Source: Catajapyx aquilonaris
Lineage: Eukaryota
Direction of reading: 5' to 3'
Assembly (NCBI GenBank): GCA_000934665.2
Contig: KZ539058.1
Coordinates: forward strand, 1-34,789
Length of the DNA: 34,789 bases
The translations under genes and the position numbers were made by a program. The notes beneath the pieces were generated by a model. That model ran no database searches, had not been told where the DNA came from, and saw only the letters and a list, made by a program, of their open reading frames with translations. Below are positions 1,143-34,789 of the stretch, one piece after another (the first letter of the stretch is position 1; each line of letters begins with the position of its first letter).

Positions 1143-1348
1143 TCAAATGCAGAGGTCGTTGGCGGGGGCCTTGTTGTTGATGTTGCAGTTGTTGAGGGAG
1201 CAGGCGCTACCCGTTGGCGATGCGGCCGCGGTGCTTCCGGAGGAGTTGGCCCTGGTGGCGGCCAATGGAGACCGGGCTTCTTCCGCCAATCCGGACGAAG
1301 ATGACCGGATTCCGTTCCCGTTCCCGCCACTGTAGTAGTAGGCTGAAC
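1143..1348 (-). CDS. sv: Pax2/5/8 last coding exon
   Basis: (S)SAYYYSGGNGNGIRSSSSGLAEEARSPLAATRANSSGSTAAASPTGSACSLNNCNINNKAPANDLCI*; acceptor CTCCTTCTGAACTTAG|GT; LL-SSxYYYS across the junction matches the Pax2/5/8 C-terminal motif; TGA at 1143-1145. Confidence 0.92.
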
Positions 1349-5960: not shown

Positions 5961-6627
5961 TTGCTAATTTTTTATAATTATGAAAATATCTGAAATTATA
6001 TTAGGTTTTTTAAACAACTAACACCTAGTGCAAAAATTGCAAATCAATTAGAACATATTGCCTTTTTAATTGATCGAGAGTGTTTGTTAAAAAGATTAAC
6101 GGAGTTGTCACAAGTTCCGGAGAGATCAAAAGGATGCTCGCACTGTGCGAAATTATCATGTGGCGTTTTGCAAAATCGGGTTTTTGACGAATCATCACAC
6201 ACGGTTGAAATAATTGCCGCCTTCCTATAATCACATTTTATTTAGCAGGCCTCCCTCTCTGGTCATGATCAATTTTGGATTCAATTGCGCTCATGTATCC
6301 ACCGTCATATGTGCGGTCAGTTTGTCAAAATCTCATTTTTTTTCTCTCCATGTCTCATTCAAGCCAGATATTCACTATGCACAGTACATATTGCGCAAGT
6401 CCCCCAAGTTCAAGAGATGCAACCAATTTAACGTAAAAATAAGAATTAATTACAATATTTCCTTATTTTTAAACTGGTTGCTGGAAATTGAACTGGAAAC
6501 TTCCAACACTGCATACATCCACCATGTTAGTCCTATAACTAAGTGCCAGAAAAAAAGCAGTCCTTTTGTACAGATTTTTTTCTTCTTCTTCTGTCTCAGC
6601 TTTTGAAGAAAAAAAATGAAGCGTTAC

Positions 6628-6735
6628 CTGGTTGGTAGGAGTTAGCAGCTGTGGTGTCGAGAACTCCAGGCGCACCCAGCAAGGGCTTCATGTCCTGCAT
6701 GCTCATTGGCGTGAGGGGCGTCAAGGTACCGCTAC
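6628..6735 (-). CDS. sv: Pax2/5/8 coding exon (symmetric, 108 nt)
   Basis: (G)SGTLTPLTPMSMQDMKPLLGAPGVLDTTAANSYQP; acceptor CCGACAG|GT, donor CCAG|GTAACG; phase 1-1, open frame, GC island in AT-rich intron. Confidence 0.82.
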
Positions 6736-7691
6736 CTGTCGGAACGGATCAACTCCGTTCTAGATCCACCAAAACTTTTCCAAGCATATCCCATCCGGAA
6801 AATAGCATTTCAACCAAATCAAGCCCAAAAAATCGCACTCCTCTCCCATCAAACTTTGCTGGAAAGGGACTGTTACTTTCTCTTCGATAATGCTCTTTCC
6901 GATGATGGGAAAGCCTCTCTAAATGAGTTGAACTTTTCGTTTTTCAAACATCAATAGTAAGAAGATGAGGATCTGCGCAGTGGTAGACCTGACACCCCCA
7001 TACCAAACATGCATAGAAAAAAGGGTCTAACTACATCTACTTAAAAAAAGCAATTGCATGCCGGTAGATGGCGACTCTGGTAGTGCTGCCATCTGTCGGT
7101 TTTTAATACAACCCAAAGTGTTATGACTACGTGCCGTGTAAAAGTGTAGAAATTGTGTAAAAGCTTCTGCCACCATATTATATAGCCTTTGAAAGTACCT
7201 TCACCAGATAGTATCTACAGAAAAATGTGACCTACACCCGGGATAAATCAGTACACAATTGGAGTGATAAGGAAGGAAGATATCAAAGATGACCTTGCTA
7301 AGATATAGGGAAGTACGTAAGCAGTTGGAAATAATTTTTTTCCCATCTCCATGGTCCAACGAGAAAAGAGCACCGCTATAGCTGTTAGCTGTTTCTCATT
7401 AAAGCGTGAAATGTTGGGTAACATTTGAATTTTCGGTAAGGACCCAAATATTACCTGAATTTTCCATTTTTTAATAAGATTTTTATTTTTATAGCAAATG
7501 AAGAACTAACTAGGAACGGCCAAAATTGTGCGCCCCAAGCCTGCATTTTGATGCTACGTTTTTCGGCCCCACATCGGGCGCGAAACAAGTAGCAGTTACT
7601 GCTTATTGAAAAGCAGCTAAATATAACTTGCTTCTATTGTTGGACCATCCCAATTTTTTTAGTGGATGTTTCAGAAATTTTGGAGACTCAC

Positions 7692-7938
7692 CTAGAGACG
7701 ATCCGATTGGCGGCGTGTAGACCGGGGTGCTTTGTGCCTGGCTCATGCCGTTGAGGGAGTCGTAGAGGACATCCGCGGAGGTCGCGTTGCCCGCAGAGGT
7801 CACCGCGGTGGTGAAAGGTGTTTGGTGGTCCGCAACAAAGTACGGGGAACCGCCGTTCGGTGCGCTGACGGCGGGGCTGCCTAAGTCTGGGAGCAGCTTA
7901 GGCTCTTCCTTCATGCTCGCCCATTTGGCTGACCACAG
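7692..7938 (-). CDS. sv: Pax2/5/8 coding exon
   Basis: LWSAKWASMKEEPKLLPDLGSP...PVYTPPIGSSL; acceptor TTTTCCCCGCAG|CTG, donor CTAG|GTGAGT; 247 nt, phase 0-1; GC-rich coding island. Confidence 0.92.
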
Positions 7939-8507
7939 CTGCGGGGAAAAAAAAGTGTAAGGTTGTAACTCTTGTTCAGTAGACAAAAATTGCGTTATAT
8001 AACTTATAAGCTTGCAGTAAAGCTATCACATCGGCTGTAATTCCCGTCTGCTGGTTTACGTAACATCCGGCCAAAAACCAAAATAGAAATGCAATATTTG
8101 CTCAATAATTTCGTAAGTAGTGAAATATGTACATGCCGCACTTTTATTTTCCCAAGCAGATGCATATACTTTAAAAGGCAATTCCCACCCGGAGTCATTG
8201 GTAATGAATTACGACTGGTTTAAGTAACCCTGAGGGCTTTTTCCCATTGTTCCCATCACTGGAGATAATGGCGATGGTAGATGATGAGGATGCGGATGAT
8301 TATGACGACGGGTGAGGATGAGAGATGATCCAAATAAAGATAAAATGCTGGCGTCGTATAGGGTTCCGAATAGCCTTGACGCCAACTCAATTTCAGAAAA
8401 CAATTTGCTTGGTGGGAATTGAATTGAGATGACGGAGGAAAAAAAAAATATTACTTCAGGTTTGGTCATGCTCGAACGATTCACCCTTGAAAAATTTGAT
8501 GACTTAC

Positions 8508-8596
8508 GTTGGAATAAAGCTGATCACCGTTGTACTGTGCTGTCCTTTGCCTCTTCAGGTCGTGGTCTGGATGCCCGTTCAGGTCACGGTTGTCCT
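8508..8596 (-). CDS. sv: Pax2/5/8 coding exon (basic NLS-like region)
   Basis: Not in the ORF track; read by hand as (E)DNRDLNGHPDHDLKRQRTAQYNGDQLYSN. Acceptor CTTTTCAG|AG, donor AAC|GTAAGT; 89 nt, phase 1-0, bridging the flanking exons exactly. Confidence 0.9.
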
Positions 8597-10089
8597 CTGA
8601 AAAGTCACAGCGTTTTAAAATATGGACAGAAAATTTACACTTAGTATATCAATTTTGAAGCAAATACAGCTCGAAAATTACTATACAGTACAATGCTTGT
8701 TAATAATTGCTATTAATCACGACGTGCCAGCTGTATCTTTCAATTGAGTATTGCAATTTTTAACATAAGCTGCATATGTGATGATGATAACACTGGGACA
8801 CAGTTTTCACTGAATTGAAAATAATTAAGAAGCACAATACTTTTCAAGAAATCAATGCAATACAAGCAGAACGTGAACGTATCTTCTGAGTACTAAATGA
8901 CTAAAGTAATGACTTTCCATGCAAAAAAAAGAGTCAGGGGGAAAATGGGCAGGCAACTCGCACTCAATTCCAGGCAAATGACTCATCATCAGATCCGCTC
9001 TAATCGCCTTATAATCGCACTTCCGCATCCCACGCTGTTTGGAAACAACTCCTCTTCACAGGTCCTCCTCACCAATACGTTACTCCCTGATAATGATCGC
9101 CTCCATAATTTCGCAAAATCTGGTCGGAGCCATAAATCGCCCTGCTTCTTTTTTTTATATTCTAACTCGCTCTCTCCATGCTTCAAGTAAAGGGTCATTA
9201 AGCTCCCCTATATCCGCGACACAATATCGTCGCCCGTATCCGACATTAGCCTAATTACCTCCCGAAGGAGGCCCCAAAACCCAGAGTCACCTTCTTGAGC
9301 TTAGGTGTGATGGGGAGCGAATTTCTCTGCTAAGGCGAAACCATATTTCGCAGTGGGGAAAGGAGGATTTCCCTATAGGATTACCCCCCTTTCCTCTCCA
9401 CAATTTCGACTGAATCTAACCCGAGCTTTTGACTGTGGGGATAATAGCAAGGTGGATCTCTAGCTATACATAATATCATCTGGAAAGTGCGGACATTAAC
9501 AACCTAGCGTGAGAAATCCCACAGTAGCGGTTATCCTTGGTCCGAATCAGCCACCTTCACCTTTTGGCAATATATATAATAATAAAAAACTTCCGGCTGT
9601 ATTACCTACGAACAATGAGTGACATTGGACAGACATTCTAACCCCTCGAAAAGCAATCGGTCTCCTTCACATCATTATGATCATCATCATCATCATCTGA
9701 TGCACTCTCGCCCCCCGCCCCCTCCCCCATTAAAATAATTCGGCTTCCCCTCACCCCTCATGGCTGGCCATAGTTGCCTTCCCCCCCTCCTTTTTGCTAT
9801 ATCACATTGCAGCCGCTTAATTGAGCTCCTGACACTTGATGTGAGCTGCATCATTGTGATTAGATTGTGTTTGGAAGGGGCCAACACAAACACTCCTCCT
9901 CTTTCCCCCTCACATCCAGGATTAGAAGTTAGTCCAATTATGTCAATAATTGTGCTGCTTGTAGTATTATTCTCATTATGTGTTGTGAAAGACCGAAATC
10001 AGTAGATGGCGCACGCTGCTTATTCCGAATAGCGGCATGACATTAACGGATTATCGCAAAAAATTGGTATTTACCTTATGTTGATACCA

Positions 10090-16500: not shown

Positions 16501-18555
16501 GAAGTACCGTGTGTGTAAAAAAAAATTAGGGTTGTACCAACCTGGAGGTCCGGTCACCCACCAGTCAGTGTTTTCGTGCCGGGTTCCTAAAGTAAAGACA
16601 CAGAACTAAACAAAAAAAGCCACACACAAACAATCAAAACAATAAATTGCATGCTTATTTTATGTAAAGCACTGGACATGCATAATATTGCGGTGCTGCA
16701 CAGACAACAATGTAGCAAAATGCATCGGCACCTCCTTCAAAAGACTGGCTGGCCGGAACTGGCCAAGCGAAGCACCATCAATCGCTCCTTGTTTACCGCT
16801 TGTCTTCCTCGGCCTTGCTGGTCAGTGTTCCACGTTGCTACCCTTCGTTTCCTCAGACCCCCCCAAACCTCCCTCTGCTACCACTACACTATACCCCCTC
16901 CCCCTCTTCCCAACCCGTTTTTCCTCATCCCCAACCACGTTTTAGACTCCCACCACAAGGNNNGGGGGGGGGATGAGATGAGAGAACAGGCTTCAACAGG
17001 GATTTTTTTTTGCAATCCGCAATTGCAAATATTTTGGCCAAAATGCGTGAATTTTCGCTGTTGATAACCTGTGAATATTGCTGCTACATACACCGTGTGG
17101 AGATGATCATTAAGGTACTGTACAGCGTACAGGGTGACTAAAGTCTGGACACATAGGTACTAAACATGTATGTGTATGTGTCCAGTAACCCGGTAGTGTA
17201 AAAGGCGCATTACGTTGTCTAACTGTAATTTATTATTTAAATAGTCACAAGTGTTCCGTGCAGTTCACTTTACGCCTGTGATCCATGCAAGACTGCAAGC
17301 CAAACGAGGCTTTTAGGTTGTATAAATACCAGGATGAAACCTGTTCGCTCCCAATTTTCGGCATAGCCAGGAGCACTGCCAGCAAGAAACGGAAGATGCC
17401 AATGGAAAGTATCCAGCCAATCAGAATTTCCATTATTTAAATTTATAAATAAGTTCGAATGAGAAAAAATATTCAAATTAGCACACTCATGATTATGTTT
17501 TTTCTCTCTCCACGTTTGACGTTCTGTGCTAATTAGGCCGGGAATCTCATGCTTCCGAGCAACCTGTTCCGTTTTGAAATCGGAACCCTAGACGGGACAT
17601 CAATTGCTATGCACCGTTTATGACAAATCTGGTGAGATGAAGTTGTTAATTTTTTTTATTGCTCTTAAGCTTCACCTTGCTGTGTTGCTGTGTTTGTCTT
17701 AAACCTTCTCATTGTCACATTTAGACCCTTCCGCCTGAATTCGTGTCCCAATTAAACCTGGTTGTCTCCTTGTAAGACGATCCCTGTCAAGATGGCGACC
17801 GGTGTATGGGATGCATGTGTGAAGAGAAGGAACAGCGCTGGGAAAACGCTGGAGGAAGGAAGCTTTGGCTCCCGAGTAAGGGCTGCTGCTGGGTGTGGTG
17901 GTGGGTGATGGGGTAGGGTAGGTGGGGGTGTTCTCATGGGAACAGGCGTTCCATTAAAGGAAAAAGGGGCCGACTAATTCCGGGACGCAAGAGGGAATGG
18001 CAGGCGGTGGGGGGAAACTCTCCTGGAAATGGCGGCCTGCCGTTTTGAGCGGTAAACAGGGCCATGGTGAGGAGGAAGGTTGGATGTGGAGGGGGGGAAT
18101 GATGGCGGTGGTTGTACAAGAGAGAGAGAGAGTGGAAGGGTGAAATTCTCGTCTTATGTCCACTAAAACCGAGTGGATCAACCTGCGTGTTTGTCCGCCA
18201 CTGAAAAGAGACGAGGAAAGCTCCGACTATAAATCGTGAAATGGGGCTCGGTGGAAACATCACACCGAGTGCCATCAGACATATTTTTTTTTGTAAATAT
18301 TCTCAAAATTCGAAGCGCTGATTGGCGGTGACCACAACATCACTTCCGGGGCGTAAAAACAGAATCAATAACCTCCGACCCTCCCACCATCTTCTCTGCT
18401 ACATCCCACAAAACCCGGTCGATATGACGTCGCCCACAGCACACGGGGAGGAAAAAAAATAATTTATAATGTGAAAGCCAGTCTGATGAAGAAGATGCCT
18501 CAAAATGGCGGCCGAAACATAATCAAAATGGCGCGAACCACGTGGGTGGACTTAC

Positions 18556-18803
18556 CTTCGTCGTCCCTCTTCCTCTTGGCCACGTTTCCGTTGGGATCGG
18601 GCTGAGGTATACCGAGGATTCCGTTGATGCTGTACGAACCGTGTCTTTGCAGCGGTGCTTCGTGCGGACTGGGCGCCGACGCCACCGGTGCCGGCGGCGC
18701 GTGGGTGATGACCGACGTGGTTTGCGACACCGAATTACCCGAACCTTGTTGGCTCTGATGATGCACCTGTTTCGCCTTCTCCGCCGCCTTGTTCCTCACG
18801 ATC
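18556..18803 (-). CDS. sv: Pax2/5/8 coding exon: end of paired domain + octapeptide
   Basis: (R)IVRNKAAEKAK...HGSYSINGILGIPQPDPNGNVAKRKRDDE; contains the Pax2/5/8 octapeptide YSINGILG. Acceptor TTTGCAG|GATC, donor GAAG|GTAAGT; 248 nt, phase 2-1. Confidence 0.96.
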
Positions 18804-19515: not shown

Positions 19516-19548
19516 NNNNNNNNNNNNNNNNNNNNNNNNNNNNNNNNN
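19516..19548. other. Assembly gap (N run) after poly-G
   Basis: 33 Ns; a smaller N run at 23825-23833 and isolated Ns also sit next to G/C homopolymers. Confidence 0.95.
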
Positions 19549-23330: not shown

Positions 23331-24089
23331 CGACGGGCTAGTCAGTATCGTTACAATATTGGTTGATCAAAAAGTACCACCTCCGGAATCGGTACATCGG
23401 TGTCTTATAACACCAGGCCCATTCCGAGCCTCTAGTGAAGCAGAAAGTAAACCCAATATCACCTGTTCAACTGATTTTAATGATTTTTTCCCCCCCCCAG
23501 CACCCTCCTACTGTTCTTCCATTTTATCCGGATGTTTGCGCCTGCCCCGTGTTTATCCTACCCTCGTGCGAGCATCACGCCCACTTGTCGGCTCACATCT
23601 GCGATCCTTTGAAGCTCTTCCGCCTCAATAAAGAGGAGGCCTCCCCCTAAGCACCTTCTCCAAATCTAGGGGAAAACCTCAATATGGCACGGCCTTATCT
23701 AGAGCCTTATAAGTGCTTAAGTCGCGATTACCACCAAATTTTCCCTGGCTGAACACACACCCAGATCTGATTTATTTGTACTCAGAAATTGATTGCTAGT
23801 TTGCTGTGGGGGGGGGGGGGGGGCNNNNNNNNNGCTCCCAGCAGCTTTGAGAGATATGATTGAACAGCCGATTGTTTGATAAGCTGTCAACAAGCGCTAC
23901 CAGATGGGTTATTGTGAGAGCGGGCCCTCTTAGGAAAGAGATTTATGAGTTTTACACGCACATTGTTATAACAATGGGAAATAATCGGTGGATAATTGAG
24001 CTGTAATGATCGAGGCGGATTTATTGTTTCTAAAGTGCTGATAAAGGATTGCAAGAACTAATTTTGCGCCCCTTTTTATAGAGAAAATT

Positions 24090-24605
24090 GCACTGTAAAT
24101 CATGTACCGACTTGAAGGTGGTATTTTGTGATAAACAAGTACCGTCTACAGTACTGAAGTATAGACAGCCCGTGGTTCAGATGTACCGACTTGAAAATGC
24201 TACATCACTATGTACCGATTCGTGTACCGACTTGGAGGTGGTATTTTGTGATCAACATATACCGTATATGAGTACCGGTACTGACTTGTAGACGGTATTT
24301 GATGTCCAAGACGGGTATACATGAATCGGTACATCGTGATGTATCATTTTCAAGTCAGTACATTTGAACTATACGGACTGTTTACAAGTCAGTACCGTAG
24401 ACGGTATCTCTATCAATGGATGTGCTGACTTGAAAATGGTACATTACGATGTACTGATTCGTGTACCGACGGGACGTATATTTTGTGATAAACAAGTACC
24501 GTCTACCAGTACTGACTTGTACATGGTATCTAAGTCGGTACATCGTGATGTACCATTTCCAAGTCAGTACATCTAACGTTGTGCTGTCTGCAAGTCAGTA
24601 CTGTA
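24090..24605. mobile_element. Foldback repeat family A (CACTGTAA terminus; GTACCGACTTG/GTACTGACTTG subrepeats), copy 1
   Basis: Starts CACTGTAAATCATGTACCGACTTG; contains both orientations of the core; shared with 28039-28385, 29764-30061 and 34748-34789. Confidence 0.8.
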
Positions 24606-28038: not shown

Positions 28039-28385
28039 CACTGTAATTCATGTACCGACTTGGAGGTTGGTATTTTGTGATCAACAAAAATTGTTTAGAA
28101 ATCAGTACTGTACATGGGATATGACTTAGATTATTTCATATAAATCGCAATAAGCTACTGACTTGTAGACAGCCCATCGTTCAGATGTACTGACTTGAAA
28201 ATGGTACCTCAACATGTACCGATTCATGTACCGACTTGGAGGTTGTATTTTGTGATCAACAAAAACCGTCTCCTATATAGACGTATATGACGTCCAAGTC
28301 GGTACATGAATCGGTACATGGTGATGTACCATTTTCAAGTCAGTACATCTAAACGATGGTCTGTATACAAGTCAGTAGCTTATTG
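28039..28385. mobile_element. Foldback repeat family A, copy 2
   Basis: CACTGTAATTCATGTACCGACTTGG start; about 93-bp inverted arms at 28148-28240 and 28293-28385. Confidence 0.82.
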
Positions 28386-29526: not shown

Positions 29527-29724
29527 CTGTTAATGGAGCTGACACTTGGCACGTTGTCCTGCGTGCAGATTCCTTCGGCTAGTAACCGATCTCGGATCTC
29601 CCATGCGAACATGGTCGGATTCTCTCTCTTGTAGTTGGCGATGGCATCCACCACAGGAGGAGTCGCCACCTTGGGTTTGCTGCCGCCAATCACGCCAGCT
29701 TTGAAGCTCCCAGTCTCGTAGTAC
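29527..29724 (-). CDS. sv: Pax2/5/8 (shaven/D-Pax2 type) coding exon: paired-domain linker + RED subdomain (canonical 'exon 3b')
   Basis: Translates (R)[65 protein letters not shown](R), the C-terminal half of a Pax2/5/8 paired domain; [16 protein letters not shown] is the Drosophila shaven type. Acceptor TTCTTGTTCCAG|G with CCTAAC branch-like motif, donor AACAG|GTCAGT; 198 nt, phase 2-2. Confidence 0.97.
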
Positions 29725-29763
29725 CTGGAACAAGAATGACAGAATTGTTAGGAAAAAATGTCT

Positions 29764-30061
29764 ACAAACAGTTCATCGTTCAGATGTACTGAGGTGAAAA
29801 TGGTACATCACGATGTACCGATTCATGTACCGACTTGGACGTCAACAGTAGGCTATACTGTATTGTAGACAGCCCATCGTTCAGATGTACTGACTTTAAC
29901 GTCAAATACCGTCTACAAGTCAGTACTTGTTAATCACAAAATACCAAGTCGGTACATGAATCGGTACATCAAGTCAGTACATCTAAACGATTGGCTGTCT
30001 ACAAGTCAGTACTACGTTTGTCACAAAGTACTACCTCCAAGTCGGTACATGATTTACAGTG
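29764..30061. mobile_element. Foldback repeat family A, copy 3 (between the two paired-domain exons)
   Basis: Ends CCAAGTCGGTACATGATTTACAGTG, the reverse complement of the family terminus; internal inverted core copies. Confidence 0.82.
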
Positions 30062-30322
30062 TAAGCATGCTTCATGAATGCATATACAGATGATTTAAGA
30101 GCCTATGACTAACTCGGGTCCCGTTTTTGGCAGGGGCACACTTAAAAAAATGTTTCTGCGTGCTCTTGGTTGGAGGAACATCTAACGATCGTGCAACGTT
30201 TGCCAAGTCCATGGATCATAAACTGCGACCTATTTTCCTGTAGAATTGCATCGCTAATGTAACGTCAACCTCAAAAAAGCAATGTGGATGGTAAGCGGCC
30301 CCAGGGAAGGGGGAAAACACAC

Positions 30323-30547
30323 CTGGGGACGGGGGCGGCCCGGGTGTCCGTCTGCCCCCAAGCAGCAGCCACGAGGGCCGCAGCATCAGGGGCTGGGCAA
30401 GAAGTGGAAGAAGGGCTGATGTAGGATCCCGCACCTTCTACTGTCTCAAGGGCTGGGGTGATATTGGTGGTGGTGGTGATGGTGGTTGTGGTTGGGTTGC
30501 AGGGGCCGCTCACCAGCCCAGGGCGGACCGACCCCGTCTCATAATAT
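30323..30547 (-). CDS. sv: Putative alternative duplicated paired-domain exon ('exon 3a') lacking the RED helices
   Basis: Long polypyrimidine acceptor TTCTGTCTCTGTATCCCTTCAG|A, then YYETGSVRPGLVSG... in the same phase as exon 3b; open for 74 codons to donor CCCAG|GTGTGT; 225 nt, phase 2-2. The 3' boundary is less certain than the 5' boundary. Confidence 0.68.
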
Positions 30548-33500
30548 CTGAAGGGATACAGAGACAGAATAGGTTGGCAAGAGAGGACAATAAAGGAAAG
30601 GTTGGAAATACACATACCTCATTAGCACCCAGCATATCAATCTACATGATTAATAAGAGTTGGACTCTTGCAGAGTGCATTAGGCCTTATTGCTTCTGAC
30701 AAGTGCATTATCTCAATATTGGCTGATCCACATGGGGGGTATCTTGTGGTTAGAGGGAGAGTAAAGTGCCGCATGGAGCTCACCCAAAAGAGCTAATGCC
30801 GTTAATGTGAGGGGAGAGCTCCCTAAAAAAAAAAAATCTATCGAAAAGTTAAAGCATGAGTTGACAATGGAGCTCTCAGCTCCCTTCTAAAAAAAACGCC
30901 ATTTAATCTTTTATTGTCCAACAATACCCCCACTAAAAGTTGACATCGATCCCCATTTATTGTTTGAAAAGAAGAGTGCATCAGTTAGATTTTCATCCCT
31001 AGAATCAATCATTGGAACGACCTAAGCGCCATCTCCTCCATGCGGGCTAGAGAATCATCCCGGGACCCAACCCGCCTCGGTCGATCAGCCCCGGAACATT
31101 CCAGGAATTGGGGGGAGTTTCATCCCGATCCGGATTGGCTTATCCAGGGCCAAATGACTAGATTCTCCGGCATCCTTTTTTTATGTTGGCGTCGTTCCCG
31201 GTATCTTTTTCTAAGACGCTCAGAGTCCAATTTGCAGAAGCTGAGGACCCATAAGTATGCAAGAAATCCGCGGAATTTATCGCGTCCCGGATAATATTTG
31301 GGAGGGTACCCGAGTTTTTTTGGGGCCTTTTTTTAACGAGTGGAAAGGGGGTGAAATTAGGCTTCCGGTGTGTCTAAGAGAGGCATAAATTGCAAAGGAG
31401 CCTCTTTATTTTCACTAGTTTTTTTTTTCCTCAGCTCCTTTTGCTCATGTTTCTCTCCCACACTGCAGCGTGATAACACTTCCTCAGCATTAGTCAGCTA
31501 CCCATAAATAAAGATGAATACTCCATTACGTTATACACAAGAGGTTAACTCAGTTTTCCTCTGCTTTTAGGTGCTTGCGAATTTTTTTAAAATAAAAAAA
31601 AGTGTTGTTGCTGTTACAGGTCTCTCTGGAGGAAAAGTCTTTTGCAAGTGTGTGCGATGAAATGAGGGCGAGAGAAATTAGGTTAACAATTTTCTGACGT
31701 CGTCGGCTCAGTTGACGTGTTAACTATTAATTTTCAGGAAGGTGCACAGTGACTTAGACTATGTGTCTTAATGGTAGGAAGTTGACATTTTAGGCAGCGA
31801 AAATACTGTGCCAACTCCAAGTGAAATGAATTTCAGCTCGCTTTGGTTGACTTTTCTACATTGCCAGTACATTTTGGCCTTGTCTTGTGCCACGTTCTGC
31901 CACACCCTGTATATTGACACGACTCCGGTGCTCCCGTCCCCCAAACAATTCCGGGCCCATCAATATCAAGCTCTGTCTTTTCCAGCTGCCGTCTCGTCAA
32001 CAAGTGCCTTTCCTTTATCCCTTGCGACAGTTGCCAATCGGGAACCCGCCAGAGGAAACCGAGGTGGTGGGCGTCAAACCAGGGGCGAACACAGGGGCCG
32101 TGTCTGGGCCTTGAGAACAAAGGGCTTCTTTTTACCTCGCCGGCTTTCTGGTGAAAGGGGGGCACACACACTGGCGGGTTTGCTCCTAAACAAACTGGGG
32201 GTCCCCCCTGTGATTAATGAGACCCAACCTGCGTAGCAACCAGTGTCGGCAGGAACGTCTCATTAACTTTCATTATGCGCGGGGACAAGACGAAGAAGCA
32301 GAAGACGAAGAGGCCAGGTTGCCTCTCTCCAACATTGCTCTTCTTCCCTTTCAAACAGACCAAACTGCCAAGGCATACCCTCCTCAAGGTGAAGATTGGC
32401 CCATTAGGAACGGGTGGATACCAACTTGGCAAAAGATGTGGAGGAATGGTGGGGGGGGGGGGGTGTTGAACAAGGCAACACACTCATTTCATGACTCAAT
32501 GGAGGCATTTGGCGGATGATTTTTTTGAAATGCCATTTTCCTGTTGAGACACTGCCAAAAATTATATCTAAATTGTGCGGGTTGCATCAAAAACAGATTG
32601 TCAACTGGACCTTACAAAGAGTGCAACAAACGTGGTGAGGCCCGTACTTTTAGCTCACCACCTAACTTCATGTGTTACACCACTTTATTATACAAGTGCA
32701 ATCCCCTCAACCGCACTTAAAATGTGTATGTTCTACACATGACATCTCTACTATGCTGTACCAAATCTGCATAGCTACTTACAACCATACCTTGACAAAA
32801 TTTGAAACTTACATATCCAGCCTCTTAGCCGATGTGCTTCGAAAACGAAGTTATGATAGTGCACAAAGAAAACGTTTTCTGTGGAAATGCCGAGGTAATT
32901 TAGCGTTTAGACGTTAGTCGACGACATGATTGCAAAAGTGCCTTGAGCAGGTACCTCTAAAGTGGTGTAAGGGCATGTGGTAAAATGGTGTGTTGGAAGC
33001 TGAGTTAGCAACACTATAAAAAAAGGAGAAGAAAGGAGGAAAAAAAGAGCTCTCTCTCTCTGGAGAGAGAGAGAGGCCTGGCCACAGAGATATAGAGCTG
33101 GGGGCAGACATGCCTACTAGCAGAGAACCACGGGATCGATTGCGGCCATGCACTCGCATATGACGTAACGGAAGCACCATTGTGGGGACCAACTGCGGGC
33201 AGAGGGGGATGGTGGGGATGGGGGACAAAAAAGGGGAGGACTATGGACAGAGGAAACTGCCAAATGGCCTCCTGCCGCCAGCATCCGAATTACGAATCTG
33301 CACCTTAAGTCCACGGACGCAACGACATAGTCAACAATGCGGATATTGCATAAAACATGTCCTAAGTGTACAGGATAACTGATAGCACTGAAGCTATGAG
33401 TAGGTCATTATCAAAACCAGGCTATATGTTGTCAAATTCCTGGTTGCATGCATTAACCCAACATATGTATAAAGCAGAAAGTTTGTTGGTATAGTACGTG

Positions 33501-34747: not shown

Positions 34748-34789
34748 GTATACTGACTTGTAGACAGCTCATCGTTCAAATGTACTGAC
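34748..34789. mobile_element. Foldback repeat family A, copy 4 (cut by the window end)
   Basis: TACTGACTTGTAGACAGCTCATCGTTCAAATGTACTGAC matches the family core. Confidence 0.75.

Follow-up and report, generated by a model that had tools for sequence, protein, structure and literature searches.

A candidate exon with the start of a duplicated RED exon in a Pax2/5/8 gene of Catajapyx aquilonaris, and tandem RED exons in other invertebrates

The DNA analysed here, a 34,789-nucleotide stretch from Catajapyx aquilonaris that we call the window, contains on its minus strand a portion of a Pax2/5/8 (shaven-type) gene, and a candidate exon, 3a, lies upstream of the gene's canonical RED exon, 3b (Table 1). 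The beginning of 3a is homologous to the beginning of a RED exon, the remainder has lost all resemblance to RED, and the splice signals at both ends are intact; in other animals, complete RED exons stand in tandem in the same gene family. With moderate confidence, we read 3a as a truncated derivative of a tandem-duplicated RED exon, most likely the remnant of an IRPG-type partner, that no longer encodes a selected segment of protein. The tandem, swappable RED exons that we find across Pax2/5/8 are a more solid and more interesting result than 3a itself.

The surrounding gene is clear in outline. Exon 3b scores 110.5 bits against Pfam PAX, covering profile positions 57-122, and 64 of 65 residues are identical to beetle, sandfly and mayfly proteins. 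For the octapeptide exon, the best identity in the searched protein collection is 65% (among the best 120 of 241 relatives), so that this gene's own product is absent from the collection. The top scores for the less conserved exons came from proteins of a cricket and a termite, with two further proteins next in rank. The PAI exon is absent from the window, so that the upstream junction of 3a falls outside it. A dispersed repeat with inverted arms (pairs I1-I4, at about 29768-30052; arms of 27-41 nt, 80-100% complementary) takes up roughly half the intron that separates 3a from 3b, and other copies of this repeat lie at about 24088-24600, 28039-28377 and 34749-34789; minus the repeat, the distance from 3a to 3b would be about 300 nt. 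The introns of the gene also hold assembly gaps, namely N runs at 19516-19548, 23825-23833 and 16961-16963 and four single bases, 49 N in total.

Table 1. Positions of the Pax2/5/8 features in the window, with the metagenome loci that carry tandem RED exons
Feature	Position	Strand	Remarks
Candidate exon 3a	30323-30547	(-)	225 nt, open; acceptor AG 30549-30548, donor GT 30322-30321
3a acceptor region	30548-30607	(-)	long pyrimidine tract, end ...cccttcag
3a head	30505-30547	(-)	Arg-completing base and 14 codons YYETGSVRPGLVSG; homologous to RED exon start (paired-domain linker)
3a tail	30323-30504	(-)	60 codons and 2 bases, T/S/P/A-rich, 64% GC
(ACC)n microsatellite in 3a tail	30465-30492	(-)	period 3, 9.3 copies, 84% matches; read as a Thr run (TGG on the + strand)
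Proposed 3a donor GT (CAG/GTGTGT)	30321-30322	(-)	sequence reading
Intron between 3a and 3b	29725-30322	(-)	598 nt
Canonical RED exon 3b	29527-29724	(-)	198 nt, 66 codons, FKAG-type; starts cag/G TAC TAC GAG
Octapeptide exon	18556-18803	(-)	IVRNK...YSINGILG octapeptide...KRKRDDE; in-frame partner downstream of RED exon
Further C-terminal exons	~8505-8603, 7690-7940, 6611-6736, 1200-1337		tblastn
Metagenome loci with tandem RED exons	L026, L030, L032, L036, L037, L041, L055, L057, L058, L060-L062, L066, L070, L072, L075, L076, L078, L079		two complete copies each

An earlier note on this DNA had pointed to a second acceptor about 600 bp upstream of the canonical exon, with a strong pyrimidine tract and in the same phase. 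These features hold up: the intervening intron measures 598 nt, and the pyrimidine content at -40 to -4 is 81%, which is the 99.5th percentile of the 1,972 AG sites on the same strand, compared with the 96.8th for 3b and the 92.6th for the octapeptide exon. On the minus strand, 3a reads ...ctgtatcccttcag/A TAT TAT GAG ACG GGG TCG GTC CGC CCT GGG CTG GTG AGC GGC ... GTC CCC AG/gtgtgt. Translation agrees with the earlier description of a start at YYETGS that continues VRPGLVSG and runs into a T/S/P/A-rich stretch; the frame gives YYETGSVRPGLVSG and then 60 residues, of which 37 are T, S, P or A by hand count. The described donor, CCCAG/GTGTGT, is likewise present, closing an exon of 225 nt within a split Arg codon. 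The two exons have identical phase and are both multiples of 3, but differ in length (225 versus 198 nt). Because each opens with one Arg-completing base and closes with AG, 3a is in frame either with 3b (G at 29724) or with the octapeptide exon (G at 18803), again as had been claimed. Both copies are flanked by AG and GT sites that appear usable, as judged from the sequence alone. By eye, 3a contains three donor-like sites, and the proposed one is the only one in frame; the out-of-frame sites are CTG/GTGAGC after 34 nt and AAG/GTGCGG after 113 nt. The former (30513-30514) is strongly donor-like, and splicing there would, as read by eye, change the frame and lead to a stop within 3b.

The proposal that 3a is a tandem duplicate of the paired-domain exon stands for its beginning, together with the acceptor and phase, but not for the other approximately 60 codons, which have no RED homology. 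A single BLASTP comparison of 3a with 3b gives 8 of 14 identities and 11 of 14 positives, with E = 4e-05. When 93 distinct RED exons were compared with the whole window by low-stringency tblastn, the only prominent matches were 3b (E = 1.6e-42) and the 3a head (E = 2.4e-04), and this search found no further RED relics in the 34.8 kb, for example downstream of 3b. The sequence ATTCTGTC lies upstream of both acceptors. Similarity between the two exons at the DNA level extends to about codon 18 (...GCAACCCAA versus GCAAACCCAA, with a 2-nt gap) and then ends; homology in 3a is confined to its acceptor region and roughly 14-18 codons at the start. In the YYETGS codons, the six base differences between 3a and 3b are all synonymous, including Ser TCG versus AGC, and relative to YYETGSI[KR]PGVIGG, the form seen in most of the collected exons, the 3a head has four residue changes, all conservative (I>V, V>L, I>V, G>S). 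We conclude that 3a is a real tandem duplicate of the RED exon start.

The alternative that this resemblance arose by chance, 3a being GC-rich intron sequence whose open frame begins with YYETGS by accident, draws on several weak scores. Against Pfam PAX, 3a reaches 13 bits (E = 0.1, profile positions 57-84) and the whole 115-aa open frame 16.6 bits (PF00292, E = 0.0077), both below the 22-bit gathering cut-off; on DNA alone, the alignment of 3a with 3b is not significant (score 11, reached by 90 of 500 nulls); and an open frame is expected from the composition, as described below. We nevertheless consider coincidence extremely improbable, because the 14 aligned residues (8 identical, 11 similar) stand immediately after an AG, in the same phase and on the same strand, 598 nt upstream of 3b, because the 3a head is the sole other RED-like match in the 34.8 kb, and because both acceptors are preceded by the same sequence.

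The tail of 3a shares nothing recognizable with RED. In three frames, the three RED helices (...VPSVSSINR) find no match in 3a above shuffled controls, RED similarity in the tail scoring 23-26 versus a shuffle mean of 26.2 (sd 4.1). A frameshifted RED was considered on the basis of a by-eye match of AAWGQTD to FAWEIRD, which failed the shuffle control. No relatives of the tail were found among 1.84 billion representative proteins, where the 3a peptide drew three matches, all confined to low-complexity residues 20-70 in 5-10 stretches each, and a word-based search of longer proteins scored none of 510 candidates; in both searches, a relative sharing just the 14-residue head would fall below the thresholds. 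The possibility that the tail is a repeat was discarded, as no second copy of it occurs in the window. At the tail's GC content, a frame this long would be open with a probability of 0.30-0.37, versus 0.03 at intron composition, and since it is expected from composition, the open frame is no evidence of coding. The plus strand over 3a is also open, in a 134-aa frame; a gene on that strand was rejected, this frame being without a Pfam match. GC by codon position in the tail is 0.55/0.72/0.63, and in the real exons GC3 is well above GC2 (0.46/0.66 and 0.49/0.72). A GC island (63/55/76% in 75-nt bins, with flanks of about 40%) coincides with the limits of 3a, as one likewise does at 3b.

Where might such a duplicate have come from? 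Among the best 120 of 241 arthropod relatives found with the octapeptide exon, the residues after YYETGS form two classes. In the relatives listed, chelicerates, a myriapod, tardigrades and vertebrates show an ancestral type, I[KR]PG...YKKQNP, and insects, Artemia, a barnacle and malacostracans show a pancrustacean type, [FY]KAG...YKRENP. Both types are present in decapods. In Macrobrachium rosenbergii, isoform X2 differs from X4, X5 and X7 (P0015 versus P0013, P0012 and P0010) in the 66-residue RED exon and in unrelated cassettes elsewhere; the C-terminal part is identical at 485 of 485 residues and the RED exon at 52 of 65. In Cherax quadricarinatus, the RED exon is swapped likewise (P0040 and P0041 versus P0044 and P0042), and the rest is identical (451/451 and 466/466). 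These decapod isoforms are RefSeq database predictions. Panulirus ornatus also has IRPG- and YKAG-type exons, but in proteins with different C-terminal parts, and for that reason the two are probably paralogues there. No hexapod protein with an IRPG-type exon is present in the 108 named rows among the best 120 matches to the IRPG-type exon.

The 3a head sides with the ancestral type. It has R-P-G where 3b has K-A-G, and its local score is 69 against the decapod IRPG-type exon versus 50 against the YKAG type, in a comparison that rests on 14 residues; at 30505-30549, tblastn likewise matches IRPG-type proteins and not YKAG-type isoforms. The decapod genes thus resemble the window in belonging to the same family, in their exon limits (R/YYETGS...SSINR/IVRNK) and in pairing one version of ancestral type with one of pancrustacean type (RPG in 3a and FKAG in 3b, compared with IRPG...YKKQNP and Y/FKAG...YKRENP in decapods). 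They differ in that both decapod exons encode a complete RED of 66 codons, whereas 3a keeps about 14 of these codons and measures 225 rather than 198 nt. A tree of the 66-residue exons, built without support values, is less accommodating: FKAG/YKAG exons group with the upstream copies of some of the tandem loci described next, which fits poorly with a simple shared exon order, and the orthology of 3a with the decapod IRPG-type exon is accordingly something that we infer.

Tandem RED exons are not confined to decapods. Scanning metagenome contigs with exon 3b yielded 80 invertebrate loci. At 19 of these, two full-length RED exons of 198 nt each follow one another head to tail on one strand, separated by spacers of 25-224 nt. 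All 38 copies in these pairs have AG and GT in the phase seen in the window. With two intact copies at 19 of 80 loci, tandem duplication of the RED exon is common in protostome Pax2/5/8. The spacers measure 25-81 nt in 16 of the 19 pairs, from which we infer that the two copies are probably not spliceable to each other. At two further loci, L034 and L063, a second copy is cut by the end of the contig, and at L058 a third, partial piece of RED exon (positions 283-324) lies upstream of the two complete copies. The tandem pairs (L026, L030, L032, L055, L057 and others) are like the window in their head-to-tail order, shared strand and phase, and AG and GT at each copy; they are unlike it in that both copies are intact and the spacers mostly short (16 of 19 at 25-81 nt); the window has a 598-nt spacer and a truncated copy.

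The loci most like those of insects give a different picture. Their RED exon is 95-97% identical, and 11 of the 12 such loci show no second copy, eight of them (L004-L011) with 0.9-6 kb of upstream flank. The remaining locus, L001, has at positions 77-121 an ungapped RED-like stretch of 45 nt (GGQKPFVLKQPVVDA), 277 nt upstream of its FKAG-type exon, to which it is identical at 31 of 45 positions, a score reached by none of 500 nulls; lacking YYETGS and an acceptor, it is a dead copy. The expectation that the exon would be kept in orthologous introns was therefore not borne out in these loci, none of which is a close relative: no metagenome locus shares intron sequence with the window, and identity, at about 80%, is limited to the exon.

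These data bear on whether 3a might instead be a younger, lineage-specific duplicate of the FKAG-type 3b that diverged quickly, its R-P-G being coincidental and unconnected with the decapod pair. Duplication of this exon does look recurrent, given 19 of 80 loci from varied animals and the third partial copy at L058, and the L001 relic resembles its own neighboring exon at synonymous sites (31/45 nt). For 3a, however, such an origin seems improbable. Only 27 of 46 nt agree between the 3a and 3b heads, which does not exceed the agreement of 3a with the exons of distant animals (26-33 of 46; 3b shares 31-37 of 46 with the same exons). The change from K to R would take three base changes (AAA to CGC), the Ser comes from the other codon family, and fast neutral divergence would not leave YYETGS intact with synonymous changes only. 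The 27 of 46 shared nucleotides, the Arg CGC versus Lys AAA and the Ser TCG versus AGC together indicate that the split between 3a and 3b is old.

The origin that we favor would then run as follows. A pancrustacean ancestor would have had two RED exons, both of which were kept in decapods, and 3a would be the leftover of the ancestral-type (I/V-R-P-G) exon of an alternatively used RED pair. Of that exon, the acceptor and 14-18 initial codons for the linker would have survived, the part coding for the three RED helices would have been replaced by an unrelated GC-rich, low-complexity stretch with a microsatellite, and any splicing of 3a would be at a low level or without conserved function. Several observations sit uneasily with a relic. 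Neither 3b nor the octapeptide exon has as strong an acceptor tract, and the length of 3a keeps the frame. The base changes within YYETGS are synonymous and the residue changes in the head conservative, and the head resembles exons of distant animals almost as closely as 3b does. The GC island also speaks against a long-dead relic, which should drift toward the composition of the intron. Finally, neutral decay acting evenly along the exon would not have removed the rest and left the head, which implies a recent truncation or continuing selection on the head.

Such observations lead to a second possibility, that 3a has the same origin but functions today as an alternative exon. Splicing in 3a and leaving out 3b would yield a Pax2/5/8 protein with only PAI and linker that retains the octapeptide and C-terminal region; including both exons would place 75 extra residues between PAI and RED. 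We think this possible, although we would not call it probable. It accords with the presence of AG and GT and a pyrimidine tract at the 99.5th percentile, with an open frame of 225 nt that leads in frame into both 3b and the octapeptide exon, and with a GC island that matches the exon limits as at 3b. The head has been kept at the protein level despite saturated synonymous divergence, and with no intact ancestral-type exon in hexapod proteins among the best 120 matches, a recent loss becomes harder to imagine and lasting constraint on the head more probable. On the other hand, the tail has no relatives, contains a microsatellite and does not show the excess of GC3 over GC2 found in the gene's real exons; its frame would be open with a probability of about 0.3 from composition; the two additional donor-like sites seen by eye are out of frame; no exon without RED follows YYETGS among the best 120 of 241 arthropod relatives; and 3a is missing in 11 of the 12 insect-like loci. 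Weighing these points, we prefer the truncated remnant, with probable descent from the IRPG-type partner and probable loss of a selected protein segment.

A more far-reaching version of the working-exon idea holds that the ancestral partner of an ancient swappable RED pair was remodelled rather than lost, becoming a working exon in which a DNA-contacting linker is followed by a disordered T/S/P/A-rich segment and which yields a PAI-and-linker-only or long-linker isoform, and that the swapping of RED by tandem exons is old, widespread and undescribed in protostome Pax2/5/8. As a whole, we hold this to be tentative and rather doubtful.

Several known systems invite comparison. Tandem exon duplication has given rise to mutually exclusive exons, for example in Dscam and myosin heavy chain, whose members keep a similar length and fold; 3a and 3b share with this class the adjacency and phase of homologous exons, but 3a is without most of the homologous part. 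The earlier note had seen in 3a the mirror image of Pax6(5a). According to PMC4488758 and PMC1182360, Pax6(5a) carries an alternative paired-domain exon that alters which of the subdomains can bind DNA, 5a being a 42-bp insertion into PAI (PMC1182360). The likeness is sound insofar as 3a would also be an alternative exon inside the paired domain. But 5a is not a duplicate of a neighboring exon and is experimentally established, whereas candidate 3a would remove or displace RED; moreover, 3a comes after PAI, at the linker (Pfam positions 57-84), and so is not an insertion into PAI of the Pax6(5a) kind. The closer parallel is the full tandem RED exons in decapod and other invertebrate Pax2/5/8. 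A further lineage-restricted extra exon in the paired-box region of Pax2/5/8 is the noncanonical "exon 3a" of mouse Pax5, reported with other paired-domain splice events in chordate Pax2/5/8 in the available text of PMC4488758. That text concerns chordates, reports no insertion in the amphioxus paired domain and uses "mutually exclusive" in a generic sense, not of RED exons.

The earlier note knew of no such exon in shaven/Pax2. In the largely open-access literature searched, which included passages of PMC4488758, PMC12486386 and PMC5333810, there is likewise no account of swapped RED exons in Pax2/5/8. Public protein databases, though, already contain predicted swapped-RED isoforms.

The RED subdomain contributes to the DNA-binding specificity of the paired domain. 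A gene that swaps or drops RED by splicing would draw several target repertoires from one locus. This raises the questions of whether the two RED versions recognize different binding sites and of what became of the second version in insects.

A few further observations concern exon choice and unusual database entries. As a candidate for RNA pairing that might govern the choice of exon, we found only one pair of 17-nt segments, 88% complementary, between 30502-30518 (in the 3a head, codons GLVSGP) and 30286-30302 (in the intron just past the proposed donor). Paired in RNA, the segments would enclose the 3a tail and donor. In 2.3 kb, chance alone should produce roughly 0.2 pairs of this kind; the pair is probably a chance occurrence, and we set it aside. 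Among database proteins, P0125, of 558 aa, has two serial copies of one vertebrate-type RED exon (...SSINRYYETGSIRPG...), which could be read-through of a duplication or an artefact of assembly. Three predicted insect shaven forms (P0116, P0114 and P0005) have unrelated residues immediately before YYETGS, such that PAI is absent and RED is kept.
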